Shown: in pieces, positions 43,504-64,000 of the stretch
How positions within the stretch are numbered: position 1 is the first letter of the stretch
Layout of the letters: each line of letters begins with the position of its first letter
Made by a program: the position numbers and the translations under genes
DNA from: a phage
Direction: 5' to 3' (one strand)
Length of the DNA: 64,000 bases
Assembly: GCA_025823825.1 (NCBI GenBank)
Contig: GCA_025823825.1_4720.1
The notes under the pieces: generated by a model
Databases searched by the model: none
The model's input: the letters and a program-made list of their open reading frames with translations, nothing else
What the model was told of the DNA's origin: nothing

Positions 43504-44727
43504 CTACTTCGTTTTCGCCGTTATCGGCTGCGATACTGTAATCTCGACACGATTTTCATCGGTACGTTTAACGATGATAAGGTTGCGTTCATCACCGAAC
43601 GGTTCTGAGATCTTACAAGCCTCTTTAAGATTTTCGAGAATCTTGCCATGGGGTTCAAACACCGCAAAACCGGAACTAGCGTCTATTCTTATTAGACTTA
43701 CACGCGTGCCGTTTACGGTAATAACATCTTCCGTCTTGAATTCACAACAGGAGGGTAGACGGAACTGGCCGGGAATACCGGCTACGTATGCCTCACCACC
43801 GAACATTTCTATTAATGTCACCGGTTTGAATGTTTTCTCTGGGAAAGCATTATTGAGGATATCGTTTCCATTCACAAACCAGATCGTTACTTTATCTTCA
43901 GAATACGCTAGTCGGTACGGTTGGGTTGCGGACGCTTGCGCTTTATGCTGGTTAAATAACTTTGATTTTGTCGCAATCACGGCACGACCTTCGGCGTCGA
44001 AGTACAGAACTTCATATCCAACACATCCGATAAACACGCGACGGTTATTAAGTTCCGGAATTCTGACTACTAACGCATTACCATCTTCCGTCGGTGTAAT
44101 ACCACGTAGGATGATAGATTCATTGTTCAATGTTGAGTTGCTCACGATGACGCTTCGCATTACCGCTGGCGACACTATTTTATCTGCTGCAGGTTCAAGT
44201 TGCTCCGCTGTTACAGTCATGGATCTGTCTTCGTTTTCAACTGGCCGGTTGAAAAGGATTGTTTTATTAAGACAAACAATTGGGGTAATTTCGCCGATAC
44301 TCCGTATCTTGACTGAGGGGCAATTGCACACATACGGAACAAAAACATCAATATCGTTGGTCGCTTCTTCAAGCATGCTAGCATACGCCATTGCTTCGGG
44401 ACGATCGGTGAGATGAATAACAGCATAGACGATATCGTCTTTTAACCACGCACGTTTCACTCGTCCTATAACACGATTGATGTCTACAATAACTCTCTGA
44501 GCTTTCATCTCCCATTTTACTGCATCAGTACCACCCGCAACCACGTTTGGTTTATCCGTGTTTACACGATGAAGGAAACTATTGATTATTTCCTCATTGA
44601 TCTGGATATCCTTTCTCGCAAAATTCAACAACGGAATAACGAACTCATTGTTACCGCACTTCTCTGCTCCGCGAATGATAGGAGTACACTTCTTGTTCTC
44701 ATCTGATCCCCAGATAACTTTAGTCAT
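43504..44727 (-). CDS. hypothetical protein (407 aa)
   Basis: Long ORF tightly coupled to tmk; no motif recognised. Confidence 0.5.
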   Translation of the reverse strand: MTKVIWGSDENKKCTPIIRGAEKCGNNEFVIPLLNFARKDIQINEEIINSFLHRVNTDKPNVVAGGTDAVKWEMKAQRVIVDINRVIGRVKRAWLKDDIVYAVIHLTDRPEAMAYASMLEEATNDIDVFVPYVCNCPSVKIRSIGEITPIVCLNKTILFNRPVENEDRSMTVTAEQLEPAADKIVSPAVMRSVIVSNSTLNNESIILRGITPTEDGNALVVRIPELNNRRVFIGCVGYEVLYFDAEGRAVIATKSKLFNQHKAQASATQPYRLAYSEDKVTIWFVNGNDILNNAFPEKTFKPVTLIEMFGGEAYVAGIPGQFRLPSCCEFKTEDVITVNGTRVSLIRIDASSGFAVFEPHGKILENLKEACKISEPFGDERNLIIVKRTDENRVEITVSQPITAKTK

Positions 44728-44760
44728 TTTCTGTTTCCTTCTTGGGTTTTGTACATGTTG

Positions 44761-52939: not shown

Positions 52940-53664
52940 TGTACGATCCGGCTCCGGCTTACCCGCATCATGATGGATTCGTCATCAAGCCCTGGTTGCA
53001 CAACCGGCAACCAACGTTCGTTAAGCACCTTCGCTTCAACGCGTTTCTTGCGGGGATTGTAACGCACCTCGCTAACCCAAGCGAATCCAAGTGGATGCAC
53101 AACCCGTGGATAATACATGCGGAGCAATTGATGCATCCGATCTGTCACCTCCAGGTTAACATCCACCATGTAAGGTTTCACCATGGTAAGCTTTTTGGTG
53201 TAATACGTTCCAACGGTATGGTTACGCCAGCATGGCAAGGCATGATCCCCTTCTCTCAGTTTGCTATCCGGGTTCATCGGCCAGAACTGCTGTTCACCGC
53301 CCAGCATCGCGTGCCGCCGATCAACGCAACGAACCTGATCGGCGAACAATGGATCCAGGATATCATCCACCGCGCCCTTATTGCGATAACCGTGATGTAC
53401 CACCAACCTGCTTGCGCTCATCCGTTGCGGATGCTGGCTCTTATGCGCATACAGTCCTCCATCACCGCGCGTGTCGTAAAGATAGCCGCATGCGCCACGC
53501 CATATCACCTTGCCTACGGTTCTCTCGTTTTCAAGCAGCATCGTCGGCCCATCAAGCAAATTGGTGAACCACTGCACCTTCACGCATTCCGCTTGGACAT
53601 GCTCAGGTAATGCCTGATACTCTTTTTGGGTGTATAAGGTATCAAAAATGATTTCATCGTTCAT
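52882..53664 (-). CDS. hypothetical protein (260 aa)
   Basis: First gene of the array; promoter-like motif at 53755-53763 about 90 nt upstream. Confidence 0.5.
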   Translation of the reverse strand: MNDEIIFDTLYTQKEYQALPEHVQAECVKVQWFTNLLDGPTMLLENERTVGKVIWRGACGYLYDTRGDGGLYAHKSQHPQRMSASRLVVHHGYRNKGAVDDILDPLFADQVRCVDRRHAMLGGEQQFWPMNPDSKLREGDHALPCWRNHTVGTYYTKKLTMVKPYMVDVNLEVTDRMHQLLRMYYPRVVHPLGFAWVSEVRYNPRKKRVEAKVLNERWLPVVQPGLDDESIMMRVSRSRIVQWDATMLRHTQHDTGATLA

Positions 53665-54507: not shown

Positions 54508-55401
54508 TTATTCGGAAACGTTATAGCCGAATACTGCTTTACCGTAGGTGTGGGTACCGTCAGCTAACGACACCACTAACACATTGCTGTACGTAGCGTT
54601 AACACCATTGTCGGTAGAACTGGTGGTAGCACCGTTATAGACAAAGGTAGCTGTTTGCAGATTGGTTTTCAGTTCATTGATGATATCATCACTTACGCCG
54701 GTCTGCTCTTTGATCAGGGTGGTCAGGTTACCTGCTAAGCTTGCATCGATCTTGGTGTCGTTACTGGTAATAGCTTGTAAACCTGCAGTGTAGGTGCTGA
54801 AGTCTAACGGATAGGTTAACAGACGCGCTGAGGTCTTGGTACCATCGCCTTCATCAACGTAGGTTAAGTTACCCAGGTTGGTAACCTCGATGATGTTAGC
54901 CAGATCCAGCGTGGTGTTATAAACTTTAACTTGAACAGAGCCATACCACGCCAACGAATCTTCTTTGGCTTCCAGGGTGATCGTCTGGATACCAGACTGA
55001 TCGAAGGTAACCGGAGTAGCTAACGTTTCGGCTTTGATGTCTTTCGCTTTATCCAGGAACTTCTCACCGGAAGGCGTGATCATACCGTAGCGTTGAGCTA
55101 CAAGGTCAACCACATCACCGATGGTGGTGTTCGCCTCAACGTTAACACGTACGGCGATCTTCTGGAACCACTTAGCCAGATCCAGACGATGGTAGGTAAC
55201 ATCGCGGTTATTGAAGTAAGGGGTACCTTCACCAGGACTAAGTGTTAAAGTTGCTTCTGGAGCAGAAGGATTCTTTTCTTTAAGGACGTATTTAAGGTCG
55301 GTATATTTAAAGCTGGCACCAGTGTCAGCGTTAAGCTGGTTGATCTCATCAACGATAAGTTGCCAAGGTGTTTTTAAAGTAAGCGATACTTGAGCAGTCA
55401 T
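54508..55401 (-). CDS. probable abundant structural protein (about 297 aa)
   Basis: Start corrected to ATG at 55401 (MTAQVSLTLK…) with ribosome-binding site aggaag; the annotated N-terminal 91 codons overlap the divergent gene and are rejected. Strong codon bias; Thr/Asn/Ser-rich. Confidence 0.55.
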   Translation of the reverse strand: MTAQVSLTLKTPWQLIVDEINQLNADTGASFKYTDLKYVLKEKNPSAPEATLTLSPGEGTPYFNNRDVTYHRLDLAKWFQKIAVRVNVEANTTIGDVVDLVAQRYGMITPSGEKFLDKAKDIKAETLATPVTFDQSGIQTITLEAKEDSLAWYGSVQVKVYNTTLDLANIIEVTNLGNLTYVDEGDGTKTSARLLTYPLDFSTYTAGLQAITSNDTKIDASLAGNLTTLIKEQTGVSDDIINELKTNLQTATFVYNGATTSSTDNGVNATYSNVLVVSLADGTHTYGKAVFGYNVSE

Positions 55402-55540
55402 TTTCTTCCTCGATAGTTGGTACATCACTCTCAAAAGATGTAAGTGTTTACAGAAATTAATATATTTTATATTAAATGTGAATATTATGGAGAACGACTC
55501 CGAATCTCCTTTTCGACCATCAAAATCAGAGGACACGAAC

Positions 55541-56086
55541 ATGTCTACTTTAGACTTTAACAAAGCAGCGAAATCCCTTCTGCTTGATCTTATTAACACC
55601 AAAGCGACCCGCACATTGGCTGAAGAAGAACTGCAGTTCGGTACTCCGCAGGAATCTTCCGAACATGAAAAGAACACCGTTATTCAGCTGGACGCGGCGG
55701 CTGAAGCAGCTAACCTGCAGGGTACTCAGCAGTTCTACTACGATCGTCTGGCTCTGTCTGACGTTTTCGCTGATGTAACTGGTGATGTTACTTTCGAACT
55801 GCCGCACGGTACTGACAGCATTCAGGCTTCTGAGCTGGTAAGCAAGCTGGTCACCAAATTCGGTCTGGCTTCCCTGAATGGTGAAATCAGAGAAGAAACC
55901 TTCCAGCTGTCTGCCGGTACTGTTGGTGAGGTAATTCTGAATGCGATCGAGGGTGGCCTGGTATACACTGGTACTCTGCGAGTTGCCCTGACCTACGCAC
56001 TGGCACCAAAAGACGAACTGGCAACCGTTCTGGCGAATAACGTAGCTGAAGGTTTCGAGAAACCGACCGTTAGCGTTGTTGGCTAA
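55541..56086 (+). CDS. probable abundant acidic protein (about 181 aa)
   Basis: Start corrected to the ATG of MSTLDFNK (about 55541) with ribosome-binding site gagga; very strong codon bias (ctg, ggt, cgt, gaa); divergent from 54508..55401 across an AT-rich promoter region. Confidence 0.55.
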   Translation: MSTLDFNKAAKSLLLDLINTKATRTLAEEELQFGTPQESSEHEKNTVIQLDAAAEAANLQGTQQFYYDRLALSDVFADVTGDVTFELPHGTDSIQASELVSKLVTKFGLASLNGEIREETFQLSAGTVGEVILNAIEGGLVYTGTLRVALTYALAPKDELATVLANNVAEGFEKPTVSVVG

Positions 56087-56380: not shown

Positions 56381-57016
56381 TTACTCAACACTGAACCCGT
56401 TCAAGATGATCGCTTCATAACGCTTACGTTCACGACGTTTGCGTGCCTGCCAACCGTAGATGAATTTCTCATCTTTCTCACGACGTTCCGCTAATTCGAT
56501 GTAATAGGTGCTCTGCATATCCAGCATCGCGTCGATGAGATAATCCTTACCGGTTGCACCACGCTTAGCGATGTAAGCATCAAGAGCTGCCAGTGATTTG
56601 GGACCCATTGCACCATCAGCATCAATATCTTTCCAGTAAGTTTGACGGTTGTTCATGACGTTCAGGTAACGCTGGAGGTTCTTAACTGCGACTGATTTGC
56701 CTGCGTTGATACCCAGGTCAAAGAGACGGTCAGCTAAAAACACAGAACGTTTCATGACTTCATCAAGCTTCATCTTATCCCAGAAGTGGGTCTTGTAGAT
56801 AAAGAACGCCATTTCCGTGGTAAGGTTACGCATGTTACCGTTCCAGCCGAATTTCGTTTTCAGTGTGGTTTTGTATTGATTGGCAAGCGCTTGCGTAATG
56901 CCGTGGTTTGTGATTCCGCCCGAATCATCGGGATCGTCGACGTAACCTGCTTCGATGCTGGTTTTGTCGCGAATGATAAATTCGCACGTAAAATCTTTTT
57001 CAGTAATCTTAGCCAT
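56381..57016 (-). CDS. endolysin candidate: GH108-type lysozyme with C-terminal peptidoglycan-binding domain (211 aa)
   Basis: N-terminal GH108 signature SIEAGYVDDPDDSGGITNHGITQ (catalytic Glu in EAG/EGG context), followed by a PG_binding_3-like region. Confidence 0.65.
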   Translation of the reverse strand: MAKITEKDFTCEFIIRDKTSIEAGYVDDPDDSGGITNHGITQALANQYKTTLKTKFGWNGNMRNLTTEMAFFIYKTHFWDKMKLDEVMKRSVFLADRLFDLGINAGKSVAVKNLQRYLNVMNNRQTYWKDIDADGAMGPKSLAALDAYIAKRGATGKDYLIDAMLDMQSTYYIELAERREKDEKFIYGWQARKRRERKRYEAIILNGFSVE

Positions 57017-57142
57017 TAGAACTCCTCGTTGGAATAACGATTTAGAGGAATAGGAAGGGTCTAGAACGCGATAAACGATTTAATCCAGGCAAACCCCAGG
57101 TTAAACTTTTCTAAGCGTTAGAACGCGTTCTAGAGCGCAATA

Positions 57143-59191
57143 TCAAATACCTTTGGTTCCCTTCACGTGATGTGCGATTTCTTCAACCATTGCACGCAGA
57201 GCACGAAGCTGTTGGTCGTGTTCGTACCAACCGCCTAACAGAACCCCGCTATACACCATGGTGTCAAGACTTAACAGTCCTTTATCTGATACGTTGATCA
57301 TTTCAGGGAACTGTTCTTGAACACGCTGTGCGATAACACCGATCTTCTCTACATCAGGATCGTAGTTGTGGCGGAAACGGGCAAGCCCGCTGCGCGCCAT
57401 TTCGCGTAAACGCTCACTAAGAGACTCTGGGTGGTCTTTCAGATAACGGATGTCGTGTTTACTGCGCTCATCCGAGCGAATGTATGCGTTAGGAACATCG
57501 ATGTTGCTGTTGAAGTACAACGCACTACCACCACCTGCAGAGTTCCCCCAATAGAAGCGTGTGATCTCACCGCCGCCATTCTCCGTGATGATGACATGTT
57601 TACCTAAACGCGTACCACCATTACCATCAACGAAGACCAGTTTGTTTCCGCTGTAAGAACCCCAGAACAAGCGTGTATCGATGATGTGTGTTGCAGCGAG
57701 ACGGGCGTTACGTGGTGTAGAATACACGGTGTTAACATCTTGCTGTGCATGCGCATCGGAAGCGATACCGTAGTTCTGTACGTTACCTAACCCAACCTGC
57801 GCTTTCGTAACAGCATGAGGGTTATCCCGACGGTTAGCGTGAGCGTTAACCAGATCGCCCGCTAATTTCTGAATTGCCCAGTTGGTAGACTGTGGTGTCA
57901 TGTAACGGTTAGTTGCAGAACCACCTTGCGCTTCAGCTTGGTTAGCGGTTGGGTAGTTCTCAACACTTCCTAACCCTACTTGTGCTTTAGACACTTGGTG
58001 TGGGTTATTCTTGTCAGCGATGTGTGCATTAAGCGGAACTAACGCAAAGGTCTCAATGGACGCTTTGGTTGTGTTCGGTGCCATTAATCGGTTAGCTGCA
58101 ACACCGGCACGCGCTTCTTCTTCAGAAGCCATTGGGTAGTCTTGCACATTCCCCAACCCAACCTGCGCTTTGGTTACCCTGTGTGGGTTGTTGTAATCGG
58201 CTTTATGCGCATTAAGTGGGATCAATGCGAACTGTTCAATCGCTGCAGCGGTGCGTAGCGGCGTCATGAAACGGTTGTTCGCTGTTCCGGCTTTCGCCTC
58301 ATCATCCGAAGCGGTCGGGAAGTTATCAACGTTCCCAAGGTTAACCTGCGCTTTCGTAACAGCATGAGGGTTATCCCGACGGTTAGCATGCGCGTCGACT
58401 AGATCGCCTGCCAGTTTAGCAATCGCCCATCCAACCGTCTGTGCCGTCATGTAACGGTCAGGTGCAGTACCGGCTTCTGCCTCCGCCTTGTTTGCGGTAG
58501 GATAGTTCTGTACGTTACCTAGTCCGACTTGGGCTTTTGTTACTTCGTGCGGGTTATCGGTACGGTTAGCGTGAGCGTAATGCAGATCGGTCAGATCTTT
58601 ATCCGCCGCTTGCATGTCTTTGCGTAGCTGATCGATTGCCGCCCAGAGACGGTTATCGGACGCAGCATCACCGATAAGTATTGCGGCCTTCAGTGAGTAG
58701 ATCGCTAAGCAAAGATGTTCGGTACCGTAAATAGCACTAACGTGGTGGATGTGTGGTTCAGGCGGATAGAGTTCCGGTTTGTTCTTGATGTCGTCCCAGT
58801 TGATCGGACGATCGTCAAGTTTGAGTTCTTCGATAGCCTGATATAACGCGTCAATAAGACTTACGTAAACACCACCGATGATACGATAGTCGTTAATTAA
58901 CGTCCCCTCGATATCATCGTTGATGATGGCGATCGCCGCACAGATTTCTTTACCTGCGTAAAGCGTCGCATCCTGATACAAGAAGATGGGTTTATAATCC
59001 ACGCCTCGTACCAGTGTCTTACCGGTAAGCTTTTCAGTGATGACCAGACTTTCGGTAAAGAACGGTCCGCCATCAAGGGCGTAACATTTATTCTCGGTTC
59101 GTGGAACGGTATGCTCTTCACCAACGATGTGGTTGCTGGCGAGTGTACCGGTCCAGTCCTCGGGGTACTTCAGGGTAATTGGTGTCGACAT
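57143..59191 (-). CDS. tail fibre protein with five tandem ~55-aa repeats (682 aa)
   Basis: Repeats of NPHxVTKAQVGLGNVxNYP…A…G…NRYMTP (nt about 57700-58620) are characteristic of phage tail fibre repeats; near-identical ~110-nt DNA repeats at about 57790-57910 and 58340-58460. Confidence 0.8.
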   Translation of the reverse strand: MSTPITLKYPEDWTGTLASNHIVGEEHTVPRTENKCYALDGGPFFTESLVITEKLTGKTLVRGVDYKPIFLYQDATLYAGKEICAAIAIINDDIEGTLINDYRIIGGVYVSLIDALYQAIEELKLDDRPINWDDIKNKPELYPPEPHIHHVSAIYGTEHLCLAIYSLKAAILIGDAASDNRLWAAIDQLRKDMQAADKDLTDLHYAHANRTDNPHEVTKAQVGLGNVQNYPTANKAEAEAGTAPDRYMTAQTVGWAIAKLAGDLVDAHANRRDNPHAVTKAQVNLGNVDNFPTASDDEAKAGTANNRFMTPLRTAAAIEQFALIPLNAHKADYNNPHRVTKAQVGLGNVQDYPMASEEEARAGVAANRLMAPNTTKASIETFALVPLNAHIADKNNPHQVSKAQVGLGSVENYPTANQAEAQGGSATNRYMTPQSTNWAIQKLAGDLVNAHANRRDNPHAVTKAQVGLGNVQNYGIASDAHAQQDVNTVYSTPRNARLAATHIIDTRLFWGSYSGNKLVFVDGNGGTRLGKHVIITENGGGEITRFYWGNSAGGGSALYFNSNIDVPNAYIRSDERSKHDIRYLKDHPESLSERLREMARSGLARFRHNYDPDVEKIGVIAQRVQEQFPEMINVSDKGLLSLDTMVYSGVLLGGWYEHDQQLRALRAMVEEIAHHVKGTKGI

Positions 59192-59204
59192 AACCTGGAG
59201 GTCC

Positions 59205-61802
59205 TTATAACGTGACTGTACCTAATTTGGTTGTCTTATTGAGATTAATGACAGAGATCTGGGTATCGCTGGTCGTAATCGTTCCGATATTAACGCGCTG
59301 TCCTTTATCATCTTCTTGCTTGTAGATGGTTAACTCCAGTTCTAACTGGTCGCCATTAGGAACAACGGAAACGTACCATGTTTTATTACCTGGTGAACTA
59401 TTATAGTCTTTTAGGTTATAATGGCCTTTAGGTAAGGTCATGGCCTTACCGGCAAACAAACATGAAATGTCCTCGTTGATATAAACGTCGAAACCGGAAG
59501 AAGCGATGACTGTTGAGGCCATTATTCGAGACGCGACGATACCACGATTATAGTCGTCGATTGTGGTACCTATGACATTGAATACTTGCCCCCCGTTACC
59601 CATAATGGTCGATTCGCTAGTGTTTACGTAGCCGATACCCCAAGTCGGATGAATGTTCCAGCGGTACCCACTGTTTTGTAAATACGTATACAAGTCTTCA
59701 TAGGCCGCATTCACCCAACTACCATCACTTTTTCGTCCAGCCCTAAATTGGAATGTGTTGCTATTTCCAGATGTTCCTCGGCCAAGAGGGACATGTCCCG
59801 CCACCAACCAACCATCTGTACTTTGCATATACGCGAACGAACCGTACGCTCTGTTATCGGCCCAAATATTCACGGTATCAACACGTTCAACGTAGGCGAT
59901 CACCTTTTGTACGCCGGTTATAGCGATTGAACCCTTGCGTGCCGACACATTAACTTCAGCAATTACGACACCCATTTTCCGCTGGCTGCTGTTAAATCCC
60001 AATACGACCATTAAACACGGTGCGTTTGTTGTTTCTGGAGGAATCGTTATCGATTGTTTCCAGTCGGTGATTCCGCTGAGTTTCGTTCCAGTATATGCGT
60101 TCCAGACGGTTTGTCCAGCCGATTTCAGATTCTGTTCAGAAATAGAAATGGCCTCGCCCTCAGGGATTAACGTGTCGTAATTGAGACCAATGTTGCTGGA
60201 TAGACGAAGGTCGTTTAAGTAAGATCCGCTGAGTGTGACGTTACCGTTACGATAAATTGTCAAGAATGGCGCAGCCAGGGAGTTTAATACCGTAAAGTTA
60301 CTCGATGGCATGAAACCATAGACATCGATGCCATTACCGTGGTAATGGTAGTTTGTCCAACTACCTTGATAACTTACGGTACGTGCATCGTAGTGGCCTT
60401 GTCCAAGACCGCTGCTGGATAACGTGTATATCTTGGTTGCTGATAGAAATGCGAGATATCCATGCGCTGCCAGAGCTCCAACTACCCTGTCTTTTATCTT
60501 TAACCAAGCTGAAGTATATAACGTACTGTCGGGATTCATTTTGGCTATTTCATCGTAAGCCGTGCCTGCGAAGTTTCCGATAGTGTACGTACGTATATCC
60601 GGCTGTCCGTTATTGTCGTTTTGTACAGCAATTACTTGCCCAGAATCATTGATATCGATATTACCGATACAGTTGTGAGCCCCCCACACCCAATATCCAT
60701 CTTTATAATTGGATTCTCCTTGTGTAAATGTCGACGGTCCTCGCCACGCGATGCCGTTCGATTCGGCGTAGTATGTAGCTTGTCCCGATCCTGGATTCAT
60801 GGCGTATCTGTTATTGGTCGGGTCAAAATCGATGTAAAAATGATGCATTCCTTGACGTTGACGGTTGTCCCGATCATTTGTCCACCACGACGAACCGACC
60901 AGAATTCGCGCTTTACCATTTTTTACAGTGGACCATAAACGTATTGCGGCGCGCCAGACGATTTGACCGATCCCGTTGGACGGGAAACTATTCGCACTGA
61001 TGCTGTTGCAGACAACGAGCTCGCTGCTGTTGTTTATTTGAGTCCCTTCAATTGTAACGCCGTTTATGTTAGTAATCAGTGTTGCCGATACGCTACCCCC
61101 TGTAGGGGCGATAGAGGAACGTTGAACGGTGTAAATTTTTAGTGATAATTTATAGCCGCTCCGAATAGCTATACCAATGTAAATAGTTCCGTTAATTTCC
61201 CAACAACAAACATCGGGCATTGTTTCTTTGAAATCGGATAAAGCACCGTCGATATACATCGCAACGTGTTTGCTGGCGTCGAATGTGCCGTCCGTTAACG
61301 CGATGAACATTTTGGCATTATTACCGTTGATATCAGCCGCTAATCCGAGTAGTATGTTGTTCTGATGACAGTAAATGGCTTTAGGCGCTAGATCCAACAT
61401 AGCTGGTTGGTACTGTCGGCTTGTTGGTATTACGCTAGTAACTGCGCCATTTTGATCCGTTTTACAAATAACGTAATATACACCGTGTATGATGCTGTTT
61501 GTCGCTGACCTCAGTAGGACGATCGTCCCGTCAGATTCACGACATATACCGTAATGGCGATAGTCGGTGATTAAACCGATAGCGCCATCGGCCGAACCTT
61601 CGATTGCCAGAGGAAAATAACTTTGGTCCCCAACCTGTTCGATATCGGTTACGCCAATATCGATGTATTTTTCCATCTCGGTGTTGAACTCAGCGGTACT
61701 GTAGGCACCGAGATCGCTCGCCTTTAGTCCCGTTGGGTTGTCACGACTGGCGATACGTGTAGTAACGCTACTCACCAGTTCGCTGAACTTTTTCATTGCC
61801 AT
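59205..61802 (-). CDS. tail fibre or tailspike-like protein (865 aa)
   Basis: Large ORF within the tail fibre cluster; N-terminus (KFSELVSSVTTRIASRDNPTGLKASDL) is paralogous to the N-termini of the two downstream small genes. Confidence 0.6.
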   Translation of the reverse strand: MAMKKFSELVSSVTTRIASRDNPTGLKASDLGAYSTAEFNTEMEKYIDIGVTDIEQVGDQSYFPLAIEGSADGAIGLITDYRHYGICRESDGTIVLLRSATNSIIHGVYYVICKTDQNGAVTSVIPTSRQYQPAMLDLAPKAIYCHQNNILLGLAADINGNNAKMFIALTDGTFDASKHVAMYIDGALSDFKETMPDVCCWEINGTIYIGIAIRSGYKLSLKIYTVQRSSIAPTGGSVSATLITNINGVTIEGTQINNSSELVVCNSISANSFPSNGIGQIVWRAAIRLWSTVKNGKARILVGSSWWTNDRDNRQRQGMHHFYIDFDPTNNRYAMNPGSGQATYYAESNGIAWRGPSTFTQGESNYKDGYWVWGAHNCIGNIDINDSGQVIAVQNDNNGQPDIRTYTIGNFAGTAYDEIAKMNPDSTLYTSAWLKIKDRVVGALAAHGYLAFLSATKIYTLSSSGLGQGHYDARTVSYQGSWTNYHYHGNGIDVYGFMPSSNFTVLNSLAAPFLTIYRNGNVTLSGSYLNDLRLSSNIGLNYDTLIPEGEAISISEQNLKSAGQTVWNAYTGTKLSGITDWKQSITIPPETTNAPCLMVVLGFNSSQRKMGVVIAEVNVSARKGSIAITGVQKVIAYVERVDTVNIWADNRAYGSFAYMQSTDGWLVAGHVPLGRGTSGNSNTFQFRAGRKSDGSWVNAAYEDLYTYLQNSGYRWNIHPTWGIGYVNTSESTIMGNGGQVFNVIGTTIDDYNRGIVASRIMASTVIASSGFDVYINEDISCLFAGKAMTLPKGHYNLKDYNSSPGNKTWYVSVVPNGDQLELELTIYKQEDDKGQRVNIGTITTSDTQISVINLNKTTKLGTVTL

Positions 61803-61814
61803 TATTCACCTCGA

Positions 61815-62300
61815 TTAAATAGGCGAGTCGGGTAGCTGACCATCATCGATCTCGATGGTGGCCACCTTACGTGTTGCAGCAAGATGTGATGTACCCTGGA
61901 TTTTGTTCCAGGTGCCGATACGCATGGCGTTTTTGTAGCTGCTATCGCTATCGTTCAGCGTGTAAACAAAACCGCTATCGGTTACGGCAAGATAGATCCA
62001 GCCTACAGACTCACTGATGCCTGACACGTCCAAAGTTGCTGCTGGCACCGTCCCTACCACCGTGTTGTATTCCGCTGTACCTTGACCAATGCTGATCCGT
62101 CCGTTGCTGTAACTGGCTGCTGGAAGCGTTTTATTTCGACTGAAGAAAAGAAACGGAAGGTAACGCTGGGTAACAAGCGGTGCAAGTTTAGGAGCCACTT
62201 CGGTCTTAACGTAGACATCTGTTTGTGCTGGCGTTACCTCGTGAGGGTTCTTTTGGGTAAGATACGTCCCCCATTCAGAAAGCAGTGTTGATAGCTTCAT
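61815..62300 (-). CDS. tail fibre-associated protein (161 aa)
   Basis: N-terminal motif LSEWGTYLTQKNPHEVTPAQTDV shared with neighbouring fibre genes. Confidence 0.5.
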   Translation of the reverse strand: MKLSTLLSEWGTYLTQKNPHEVTPAQTDVYVKTEVAPKLAPLVTQRYLPFLFFSRNKTLPAASYSNGRISIGQGTAEYNTVVGTVPAATLDVSGISESVGWIYLAVTDSGFVYTLNDSDSSYKNAMRIGTWNKIQGTSHLAATRKVATIEIDDGQLPDSPI

Positions 62301-62304
62301 GCGG

Positions 62305-62820
62305 TTACCCCATGTAACGTTTTTGGCCGAGGATGAAGACTTTGTTAAATACCACCGAAGTGATTCCTGTTGCGTTACAGCTCACCTGCCCGACGCGAAT
62401 TGCTGTTGACGTATCGACCCCAGCACTACTCTGCCAGATCCAATCGATCGATCCGTCTTTCTGACGAATGAAAAGATAACCGGTTTTGTTCGCCCAGTCG
62501 GAAGTAAGTTTTTTGATGTCTAGCGTTCCCTTCGCCAGAATATAGTCGGTACCGGCGATCATGACGGGTATTTCAGGATACGAGATTACCGTACCGCTGG
62601 CAGTAACGTTGCTGATGCGTTCGCTACGAATATCGGTACAGTCACCGAAATACGCTACGGGGAGTATCCCCTTAAGGAGCTTTTTGCCGATTCTCGTATC
62701 GATCGTGTTTTTATCGGGTGCGTCGATTTGCGCTGCGGTGACTTGGTTAGGGTTATCCTTCCTTGCGTACCATGTCGTCATGCGAGCACCCAATTCACTC
62801 ATTTTTGTGCCCATTTTCAC
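62305..62820 (-). CDS. tail fibre-associated protein (171 aa)
   Basis: N-terminal motif MSELGARMTTWYARKDNPNQVTAAQIDA shared with neighbouring fibre genes; hairpin 62848-62868 upstream. Confidence 0.5.
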   Translation of the reverse strand: MKMGTKMSELGARMTTWYARKDNPNQVTAAQIDAPDKNTIDTRIGKKLLKGILPVAYFGDCTDIRSERISNVTASGTVISYPEIPVMIAGTDYILAKGTLDIKKLTSDWANKTGYLFIRQKDGSIDWIWQSSAGVDTSTAIRVGQVSCNATGITSVVFNKVFILGQKRYMG

Positions 62821-62871
62821 ATCCTATCGAAAAATAAAAAGAAGGAAAGGTGGGTAGAACCCACCCATCCG

Positions 62872-64000
62872 TTATAACGTTTCGAAGTCGGTTGCTTTGA
62901 TAACCGCGTTGAAGTTGGCAAGGAATTCCTTAAGCAGTGCTTGGAAGACATCACGAAACGCTGTGTTCGTCTGCAAGCTGGTTAAATAATCGTTCTTAAG
63001 GTAATCGCTCAGCTTACCGATCTTCTGCATCTTCTCGCCGTCTTGGTTCTCTCCAGGTTCTTGGCTGTTGATGTTAACCCATTTGATCCCTTCGAGATCG
63101 CCATCGGCAAGGAAGTTGGCGGGTGTCTCATCGTCGTTCAGGATTTTAATCGTATCACTGGATTCAATGCCACCGTAAGCTTCCAGAAGCTGGTTGACTG
63201 TTAGCTTATTGGTGTTGATTGAACCATTGACACCATCGATACCGATGCCTGCACCTGTGATGGATGTCGCCGAAAGATCGATCGGTCCGGTTAACTTACC
63301 ACCGTTGATCGGTAACGCACCAACTTGCTCAGCGGTGTGTGTGTGGCCAGCTAACGCCGCAAACGCCACGATAGACTTATACGTCGAATACGGCGTCATA
63401 TACGCTGATTGGTTGGTGTTGTCAGCCGCTTCAGTATCGGTAGCAACATTAAAGTTCTGCACGTTGCTGAGACCGACCTGCACCTTCGTTACTTCATGCG
63501 GGTTGCTCTTATTGACAACGTGTGCTGCAAAACCATCACCAGCTAAAGCAGTGATTGCCGCTTTTGTCGCAGCCGGTGTCATATAGCGGTTGGTTGCTTC
63601 ACCCGTTTGCGCCTCTTCGTCGGAAGCAACAGGATAGTTCTCAACGCTTCCCAAACCGACCTGAGATTTTGTTACTTGGTGTGGGTTTTCGGTATTCGCA
63701 ATATGACTACTGAACCCTTGACCCGCCAGTTGCTCGATTGCGTAACGAACAAGTATTGGTGTCATGTACTTGTTGTTAACTTGACCATCGATAGCTTCTT
63801 GGGTGGTGGCAACCCCGAAGTTTTGCACGCTCCCCAACCCAACTTGCGCTTTCGTAACAGCGTGGGGGTTATTGGTGTTACCGATGTGATCGGTAACCGT
63901 TGGGGTGATTAATCCTGCGATAGCGGCTGCCGTGGTCGCAGGGGTCATGTATTTATCGTTAGCAACACCCGCAGCAGCTTCTACGTTAGATGCTACACCG
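62872..64000 (-). CDS. tail fibre protein with NPHxVTKAQVGLG repeats, 5' end beyond the window
   Basis: At least three repeats (NPHAVTKAQVGLGSVQNF, NPHQVTKSQVGLGSVENY, NPHEVTKVQVGLSNVQNF); reading frame stays open from the annotated Met at 63948 to the window edge (…NDKYMTPATT). Confidence 0.75.
   Translation of the reverse strand, partial: GVASNVEAAAGVANDKYMTPATTAAAIAGLITPTVTDHIGNTNNPHAVTKAQVGLGSVQNFGVATTQEAIDGQVNNKYMTPILVRYAIEQLAGQGFSSHIANTENPHQVTKSQVGLGSVENYPVASDEEAQTGEATNRYMTPAATKAAITALAGDGFAAHVVNKSNPHEVTKVQVGLSNVQNFNVATDTEAADNTNQSAYMTPYSTYKSIVAFAALAGHTHTAEQVGALPINGGKLTGPIDLSATSITGAGIGIDGVNGSINTNKLTVNQLLEAYGGIESSDTIKILNDDETPANFLADGDLEGIKWVNINSQEPGENQDGEKMQKIGKLSDYLKNDYLTSLQTNTAFRDVFQALLKEFLANFNAVIKATDFETL

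Follow-up and report, generated by a model that had tools for sequence, protein, structure and literature searches.

Where does a tail-fibre locus rich in repeats generate its variation: in the repeats or elsewhere? We addressed this question for positions 57143-64000 of a 64,000-nucleotide stretch of phage DNA (GenBank assembly GCA_025823825.1, contig GCA_025823825.1_4720.1; the whole stretch is hereafter the window), where five open reading frames (ORFs), here called pA to pE, lie on one strand. An earlier note had read this locus as a tail-fibre cluster in which two genes carry near-identical repeats prone to variation in number and to module exchange, and three others encode receptor-binding proteins (RBPs) with a common N-terminal anchor and unrelated C-termini. 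Our analysis points to genes for the tail fibres and peripheral baseplate of a Goslar-like chimallivirus, one of the jumbo phages of Escherichia coli and Salmonella. In this explanation, the repeats of the fibres pA and pE are stable spacers, pB, pC and pD are paralogues that share modules at both ends, and the exchanged part is a propeller cassette inside pB. We assign one joint probability of about 0.65 to the whole, that is, to the fibre architecture, the paralogue trio, the pB cassette and the assembly inferred for them.

The gene block and its counterpart in Goslar

A Megablast search with positions 57143-64000 returned a single match, Escherichia phage vB_EcoM_Goslar (94% identity, 79% query coverage), a 237-kb nucleus-forming jumbo phage of the genus Goslarvirus. 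For at least 25 kb the window and Goslar run collinear at about 92-96% identity, and the five ORFs map one to one, with synteny kept, onto gp25 to gp29. The Goslar annotation gives these as proteins of 682 amino acids (aa) (gp25, virion structural protein, Peptidase_S74), 867 aa (gp26), 161 aa (gp27), 169 aa (gp28) and 717 aa (gp29), all encoded on the same strand, with gp30 divergent and past gp29. Protein identity to Goslar is 98-99% for pA, pC, pD and pE and 66% for pB. Within the window, pE matches gp29 aa 343-717 at 99.2% aa identity, and the part beyond the window end comprises the N-domain and the first 2.5 repeats. The ORF list placed pD at 62305-62820 (171 aa, GTG start at 62820); because every pD homologue begins MGTKM, the true start is probably the ATG at 62814.

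A cryo-electron microscopy (cryo-EM) preprint on Goslar, in which the fibres are unresolved, lists gp25, gp29 and gp90 as likely fibre components. Mass spectrometry of Goslar virions purified in caesium chloride (CsCl) detected all five orthologues, and the accompanying table labels gp25 and gp29 tail fibre, so the reading of the locus as a tail-fibre cluster stands.

Repeats of the two fibre proteins

The tandem repeats noted in pA and pE are real, with a period of 61 aa (183 nucleotides [nt]) and not about 55 aa: both a DNA repeat search and comparison at the protein level placed the copies in register every 183 nt. pA has five copies (aa 204-508); pE has three complete copies and the second half of a fourth within the window, and full-length Goslar gp29 has six. 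A hidden Markov model (HMM) of the repeat recognized the individual copies in pA and pE with E-values of 1e-28 to 1e-34. The consensus, xxAHxxxxxNPHxVTKAQVGLGNVQNYPxASDxEAxxGxAxNRYMTPxxTxxAIxxLAGxx, holds 12 invariant positions. Units in register share 45-66% of their nucleotides and 33-66% of their amino acids. The segments at about 57790-57910 and 58340-58460, previously described as nearly identical over about 110 nt, turned out to be 79% identical over 127 nt, with one 45-nt exact run inside. Tandem Repeats Finder, run on 56500-64000, reported no repeat because the units are too diverged.

Neither Pfam nor NCBIfam contained a curated family for the repeat, even at E-values up to 10. More than 20 PHROG families match it, most of them annotated as tail, tail fibre or virion structural protein or as of unknown function. 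A tblastn search with pA found matches in 540 phage records; Felix O1-like tail fibres and SPbeta YomR are among those that match in the repeat region only. A sequence search of the PDB yielded no solved structure that matches the repeat significantly: the repeat profile had a single, non-significant hit, T4 gp34 (9x3r, E=1.8, best stretch 5.6 bits). Our literature search for an 'NPH' fibre motif returned nothing relevant, and that for YomR returned the T4 gp34 paper only.

Copy number was invariant across the relatives examined, at odds with the proposed repeat-number variation; such invariance is what the earlier note had itself named as counting against it. The window, Goslar and eight other Goslar-like contigs (including L003-L006 and L011-L013) all have five copies in the pA type and six in the pE type, although one of these contigs is only 42-59% identical in these proteins. 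In the 90% cluster of pA (405 members), all 15 of the 15 members listed are 682 aa long, and the assemblies of origin carry the labels E. coli, Salmonella and Shigella. Between pA and its Goslar orthologue, synonymous divergence (dS) is 0.15 and nonsynonymous divergence (dN) 0.003, a dN/dS of 0.02 (0.022). Copy number differs only among distant lineages, from 1 to 7: L008 has 4 and 6 repeats, L009 has 1, other IMG/VR contigs have 4-7, and phiKZ has 1-2.5. Of the two marks of copy-number-variable (contingency-type) tandem repeats, high DNA identity between units and differences in number among close relatives, we found neither. The repeats are probably old, diverged and fixed in number, kept under strong purifying selection as stable shaft spacers that set fibre length. 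Taking these conspicuous repeats as spacers and not as a source of variation removes a false lead.

A local exchange between repeats can be seen in pA. Repeats 2 and 5 share the 45-nt exact run (58340-58385 versus 57790-57835), which is a short gene-conversion tract. About 25 nt of repeat 2 in this phage carry the repeat-5 sequence, changing Ser to Ala, and five relatives retain a distinct repeat-2 sequence; synonymous sites just upstream of the tract co-vary between repeats 2 and 5 within each genome. The pA repeats therefore do swap short patches. This observation speaks for a rival explanation in which the repeats are copy-number hot spots that alter host range, and pB, pC and pD are three separate homotrimeric RBPs held in equivalent baseplate sockets by a common N-terminal anchor. 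We consider this explanation unlikely, though the most probable of the alternatives. Its first half needs repeats that recombine, which the tract documents, but it conflicts with the copy numbers fixed within the lineage, with the low dN/dS and with the limited DNA identity between units; its second half is weighed below with the assembly of the three proteins.

Anchor and C-terminal domains of the fibres

The N-terminal domain of pA resembles that of phiKZ gp131 (pA aa 9-164 versus gp131 aa 9-167, BLASTP E=2e-17) and the N-terminus of Goslar gp29 (E=8e-11); the best phiKZ match of pA by tblastn is gp133. This gp131-like domain (about 170-200 aa) is present in pA and in Goslar gp29, the corresponding portion of pE lying outside the window, and is missing from pB, pC and pD. 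In the phiKZ atlas, six such N-domains and a six-helix bundle occupy each of the twelve fibre attachment sites, and a site is modelled as three copies of gp131 plus one copy each of gp133, gp134 and gp135 (PMC13250141). pA and pE would thus share one plan: a gp131-type N-domain docking on the peripheral baseplate, followed by a neck helix, the repeats and a C-terminal domain of their own.

The C-terminal domain of pA is predicted to end in an S74 intramolecular chaperone. The match to PF13884 covers pA aa 573-631 and scores 26 bits against a cut-off of 22, with a weak match to 6f45; the PDB sequence search for pA turned up nothing beyond weak hits on the S74 region and on a collar fibre. Among 1,125 proteins of the wider family (E<=1e-30), conservation extends over the N-domain and the repeats, and the C-terminal domains vary. 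In a distant Goslar-like relative, the pA-type fibre gene (L005:5014-6948) lies between pE and pD and not after pB, and its product has a different C-terminal domain, without S74.

Three paralogues with shared modules at both ends

The N-terminal motif common to pB, pC and pD held up in pairwise tests: BLASTP aligned pC with pD over about 70 aa (E=6e-8) and pD with pB over 55 aa (E=4e-5). A family HMM hit pB aa 6-118 (independent E-value [iE] 3.3e-12), and this module is 93-100% conserved across pB alleles. When we searched 698 six-frame segments of the window with an HMM of the first 27 residues of the fibre repeat, the best non-self hits were pD (E=0.002) and pC (E=0.007). A pD-family profile run against 1.84 billion representatives hit fibre proteins of 600-750 aa five to seven times each through pD aa 6-45, which identifies the N-module as a copy of the fibre repeat, and a broad version of this profile hit every pA and pE repeat (iE 1e-6 to 3e-10). 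In phiKZ gp131, gp133, gp134 and gp135, the repeat runs end in the same type of half-repeat, NPHxVTAxQxxxYTK, directly before the distal domains, so the N-module looks like an element of the junction between shaft and distal domain. pB, pC and pD each begin with one degenerate 'junction' copy of the fibre repeat, consisting of a helix, DNPxxVTxxQ and a second helix.

The shared motif is accordingly no separate baseplate anchor, as had been supposed: it is a repeat copy, and the three proteins have a C-terminal domain in common as well. The documented baseplate anchor of this family is the gp131-like N-domain of about 170 aa, carried by pA and pE. Nor are the C-termini unrelated. The pC and pD families align as homologues from end to end (hhalign probability 97%, E=1.1e-11), pD aa 74-166 matches pB aa 767-861 (probability 94%, E=1.2e-7), and the C-terminal relation among the three is also visible in PHROG 3573. 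An AlphaFold2 model of pD built from 56 sequences had a predicted local distance difference test (pLDDT) score of 87 and comprised a helix (3-19), the DNPNQVTAAQ loop, a second helix (37-47) and a beta domain (55-170). According to the predicted structure, this domain has the beta-sandwich fold of RBP-shoulder and TssK N-domain proteins; pC, pD and pB probably all end in such a sandwich, with the predicted fold of the shoulder of lactococcal phage RBPs and the N-domain of TssK.

An extra N-terminal helix of about 45 aa is found in many distant members of the pB/pC/pD family (P0037, P0041, P0050 and the L009 proteins). The same proteins carry a conserved C-terminal tail, RLS..G.AIPVS.G.P....W[TS]. 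Both helix and tail are absent from the Goslar-like proteins.

A hypervariable propeller cassette within pB

pB alone of the trio carries an insert between its N-module and C-terminal domain, a predicted beta-propeller of about 690 aa. Its top fold matches are lectins, sialidases and glycosidases, at 6-10% sequence identity, which places the fold in the lectin, sialidase and GH43/GH130 class of propellers. We found no Pfam, NCBIfam or PDB sequence match for pB and identified no catalytic or sugar-binding residues.

Identity within pB is 93-100% over its first 60 or so residues and 97-100% over its last 85 or so, with about 50% aa identity to Goslar between. Synonymous sites are saturated at aa 121-780 (proportion of synonymous differences [pS] 0.76-0.87), whereas aa 781-865 have a dS of 0.075, like neighbouring genes. 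Because saturation is confined to aa 121-780, the middle of pB was replaced by recombination and not by fast point mutation. Public pB alleles occur at 97, 89, 80, about 66, 48 and about 33% identity, all of 864-867 aa and some of them patchy. In a Salmonella-associated relative, pB is 48% identical, compared with 96% for pA, 91% for pE, 89% for pD and 83% for pC. Module exchange, as suggested before, does occur in this cluster; its site is the central beta-propeller cassette of pB, not the repeats.

The adjacent genes also differ in their dS from Goslar: 0.012 for pE, 0.045 for pD, 0.09 for pC, 0.15 for pA and 0.49 for the neighbouring endolysin gene. Given this wide variation from gene to gene, the fibre block is a recombination mosaic even outside the pB cassette. 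Besides the cassette, blastn similarity to Goslar also drops out at window positions 44208-44734 and 53228-53576.

Genetic screens have assigned the Goslar receptor to the outer core of lipopolysaccharide (LPS), and an LPS outer-core receptor fits a candidate sugar-binding propeller. The unit formed by pB, pC and pD would sit on the fibre or the peripheral baseplate and show the propeller to LPS sugars; with the propeller so placed, the pB cassette would set host range. pB could instead be a structural part of the peripheral baseplate ring, with the C-terminal domains of pA and pE reading the receptor and pB diversity reflecting drift or recombination hitch-hiking, a reading that we regard as improbable. 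Much of the peripheral baseplate is unassigned in both Goslar and phiKZ, beta-propellers serve as scaffolds too, and C-terminal domains differ in the L005 pA-type fibre and are of many types in the wider family, all of which would suit a structural pB. However, pB has diverged far more than any other protein of the block, sharply conserved ends combined with many alleles are the usual signature of a host-range determinant, and the top fold matches are lectins, sialidases and glycosidases, the receptor of Goslar being an LPS sugar. On the preferred reading, the cassette of about 2 kb (pB aa 121-780), with conserved ends usable as homology arms, is a proposed swap target for retargeting host range.

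Abundance and possible assembly of the trio

The published Goslar mass spectrometry gives similar virion copy numbers (low/median/high estimates) for gp26 (8.5/12.8/20.1), gp27 (9.2/13.8/21.6) and gp28 (9.5/14.3/22.4), a ratio of 1:1.08:1.11 at a level like that of the 12-copy portal (10.8/16.3/25.6), where estimates for proteins of known copy number scatter 2-3-fold. Copies of gp25 (58-136) and gp29 (50-118) are about 6-fold higher. The pD, pC and pB genes are tightly packed or overlapping. Among related contigs, genes of the shoulder family stood in sets of three beside a gene for a gp131-like N-domain in 9 of the 10 arrangements, in the order small-small-big in Goslar-like phages and L009 and small-big-big in L022, L024 and L025.

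From the roughly 1:1:1 stoichiometry, the gene sets of three, the tight spacing and the precedent of phiKZ, where gp133, gp134 and gp135 are modelled as single copies, we tentatively favour a 1:1:1 heterotrimer of pB, pC and pD, at somewhat below even odds. It would consist of a pseudo-threefold stalk of one repeat unit and a shoulder-type knob, with one chain bearing the propeller. The shared modules would drive the three proteins into a trimeric unit, with one chain of each favoured.

Three separate homotrimeric RBPs, the second half of the rival explanation introduced above, would account for part of this evidence equally. The N-module common to the three proteins is real, the shoulder fold predicted for them is known to serve as a trimeric docking domain, and eighteen copies of each protein (six homotrimers) lie inside the mass-spectrometry error. 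Against this, pC and pD consist of the anchor fold alone, without a distal binding domain, and would make poor independent RBPs; the N-modules of Goslar-like phages are only about 28-31% identical to one another, each being conserved among its own orthologues; and the recurrent count of three is left unexplained. It is very improbable that pC and pD are fibre assembly chaperones or adaptors that act in morphogenesis only and mimic the ends of pB to aid its folding. Their small size, their position directly upstream of pB with tight or overlapping spacing and the sharing of both end modules with pB would suit such a role, but Goslar gp27 and gp28 are found in CsCl-purified virions at the level of gp26, with 5-10 peptides each.

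Several points weigh against our preferred explanation, in which pB, pC and pD form one unit that displays the propeller. We infer the heterotrimer from a stoichiometry that lies inside the 2-3-fold noise, from gene counts and from tight spacing. The L008/L023 lineage has a small-big arrangement only, with two family members. In some genomes the three paralogues are mutually closest, which is expected for one shared dock and fits it as well as a hetero-complex. The propeller fold hits are generic, with no family-specific residues, and pB modelled as a monomer has low pLDDT at its termini. Finally, LPS could just as plausibly be bound by the C-terminal domains of pA and pE.

A neighbour-joining tree of the shared modules had star-like deep nodes, with some trios clustering within a genome. 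Three ancient clades, one per trio position, were not recovered, and the tree favours neither a heterotrimer nor a common dock. We also considered a 363-aa protein encoded after the big paralogue in L008 as a hidden third member and rejected it (hhalign probability 0.5%). In the IMG/VR contigs L014-L021, we observed cassettes of the order short N-domain protein, big, small, small, sometimes duplicated in tandem. The fibre seems to be split in these contigs, the short proteins of 214-330 aa being little beyond a gp131-like N-domain.

If the heterotrimer is correct, the receptor-binding tip would be heteromeric, whereas model phages have homotrimeric fibres. A rule by which each unit is built from three different chains would then hold in related jumbo phages too, big (B) and small (S) chains being interchangeable (SSB, BSS, SBB), and part of the unmodelled peripheral-baseplate and fibre density of Goslar and phiKZ would gain an assignment.

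Feature coordinates and neighbouring genes

Table 1. Features of the tail-fibre block, with positions in the window
Feature	Position	Strand	Basis or description
pA, 682-aa tail fibre (Goslar gp25 orthologue)	57143..59191	-	ORF; 99.4% aa identity to gp25
pA architecture: gp131-like N-domain, neck helix, five repeats, C-terminal region with predicted S74 chaperone	57143..59191	-	
phiKZ gp131-type N-terminal baseplate-docking domain, pA aa 1-170	58682..59191	-	BLASTP
pA repeats (span 57668..58582)	58400-58582, 58217-58399, 58034-58216, 57851-58033, 57668-57850	-	
Peptidase_S74 intramolecular chaperone (predicted), pA aa 573-682	57146..57475	-	Pfam PF13884; Ser573 and Lys578 in SDERSK
pB, 865 aa (Goslar gp26 orthologue)	59205..61802	-	N-module, beta-propeller insert, C-terminal shoulder-type domain; candidate receptor-binding subunit
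N-module, pB aa 1-80: helix, RDNPTGLKASDLGAY half-repeat, helix	61563..61802	-	BLASTP and family HMM
Hypervariable cassette (beta-propeller region), pB aa 121-780	59463..61442	-	
C-terminal beta domain homologous to that of pD, pB aa 766-865	59208..59507	-	hhalign; family HMM iE 4.8e-18
pC, 161 aa (Goslar gp27 orthologue)	61815..62300	-	N-module KNPHEVTPAQ and shoulder-type beta domain
pD, 169 aa (Goslar gp28 orthologue)	62305..62814	-	N-module DNPNQVTAAQ and shoulder-type beta domain
Terminator-like hairpin (8 bp, 5 GC) with T-rich tail in the 51-nt pE-pD gap	62848..62866	-	consensus scan only
pE, C-terminal 375 aa of a 717-aa fibre (Goslar gp29 orthologue)	62872..>64000	-	ORF cut at window end
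pE repeats (span 63349..63999)	63715-63897, 63532-63714, 63349-63531; second half of another at 63898-63999	-	

The hairpin between pE and pD (Table 1) could reduce read-through into pD, pC and pB, whose Goslar orthologues are about 6-fold scarcer in virions than gp29. Counter to this idea, gp25 is abundant, and its orthologue pA is encoded directly downstream of pB. A scan for sigma-70 promoters found sites no more numerous than in shuffled sequence.

The fibre genes are followed immediately downstream by an endolysin gene (56381-57016, minus strand) that encodes GH108 and PG_binding_3 domains; its Goslar orthologue, gp24, has been detected in purified virions at about 51-120 copies. Two DUF7941 proteins, encoded at 54508-55677 (minus strand) and 55478-56086 (plus strand), correspond as orthologues to Goslar gp22 and gp23, which the cryo-EM preprint puts forward as a baseplate-anchored 'fibre cloud'; gp23 is among the most abundant virion proteins.

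Comparison with known systems

Nucleus-forming jumbo phages are of interest for therapy since they resist many host defences. In the Goslar cryo-EM map, the fibres and peripheral baseplate are unassigned; the phiKZ atlas represents them only by docked predicted models and leaves parts of the peripheral baseplate unmodelled (PMC13250141). For these structures, we offer pA and pE as anchor carriers, the equimolar pB, pC and pD as probably one unit, and pB aa 121-780 as a swappable cassette.

The closest likeness is to the phiKZ tail-fibre paralogues gp131, gp133, gp134 and gp135 (and gp132) (PMC13250141): pA has the same N-domain, followed by the same NPH repeat. In both phages the paralogues stand in one block, and the orthologous block of Goslar adjoins a divergent gp130-like gene; the half-repeat that ends the phiKZ runs is of the type that opens pB, pC and pD. 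The two differ in that phiKZ proteins have 1-2.5 repeats each, compared with 5 and 6 here, and in that a single gp131 chain unites propeller, N-domain and repeats, while in the present block the propeller is on a protein of its own. Our family profile detected no shoulder-type beta domain in the phiKZ fibre proteins.

The RBP shoulder of lactococcal phages p2 and 1358 and the N-domain of type VI secretion system TssK (PDB 2wzp, 4l92, 5m30, 6n38) show no sequence similarity to the predicted sandwich of the trio. In p2 and 1358, a neck and head come after the shoulder; in pC and pD the fold is on its own, and in pB it holds the insert of about 690 aa. Unlike in these RBPs and TssK, the fold is preceded by a fibre-repeat unit and belongs to a jumbo myovirus. 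With T4 gp34 and gp12, the likeness is in the second half of the repeat unit, A[ST]xxEAxxGxxxxxYMTPxxxxxAI, which resembles the T4 motif ATxxExxxGTxxxxxxTPxxL, a match that is non-significant at the E-value of 1.8 given above. In T4, this motif forms a mixed alpha-beta fibrous unit in which T-P caps a helix on the three-fold axis (PMC5537660). The NPHxVTKAQVGLGNV half has no T4 counterpart, and the unit is 61 aa here versus about 33-47 aa in T4. As for S74 fibres and spikes such as K1F endosialidase and T5 pb1, pA appears by sequence to share their PF13884 domain, with the Ser and Lys of SDERSK at the expected spacing; the domains upstream of S74 in those proteins are unrelated to those of pA.

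Virion proteins encoded side by side with a shared N-terminal module, as here, are also found in the CBA120 tailspikes, in G7C gp63.1 and gp66 and in RaK2-type jumbo phages. Each protein of those systems has its own full enzymatic domain, whereas two of the three trio proteins here consist of the shared modules only. With an orthologous counterpart in a published phage and parts of known kinds, the block is an ordinary tail-fibre module; what might be of specialist interest is only the paralogue trio and its recurrent count of three.

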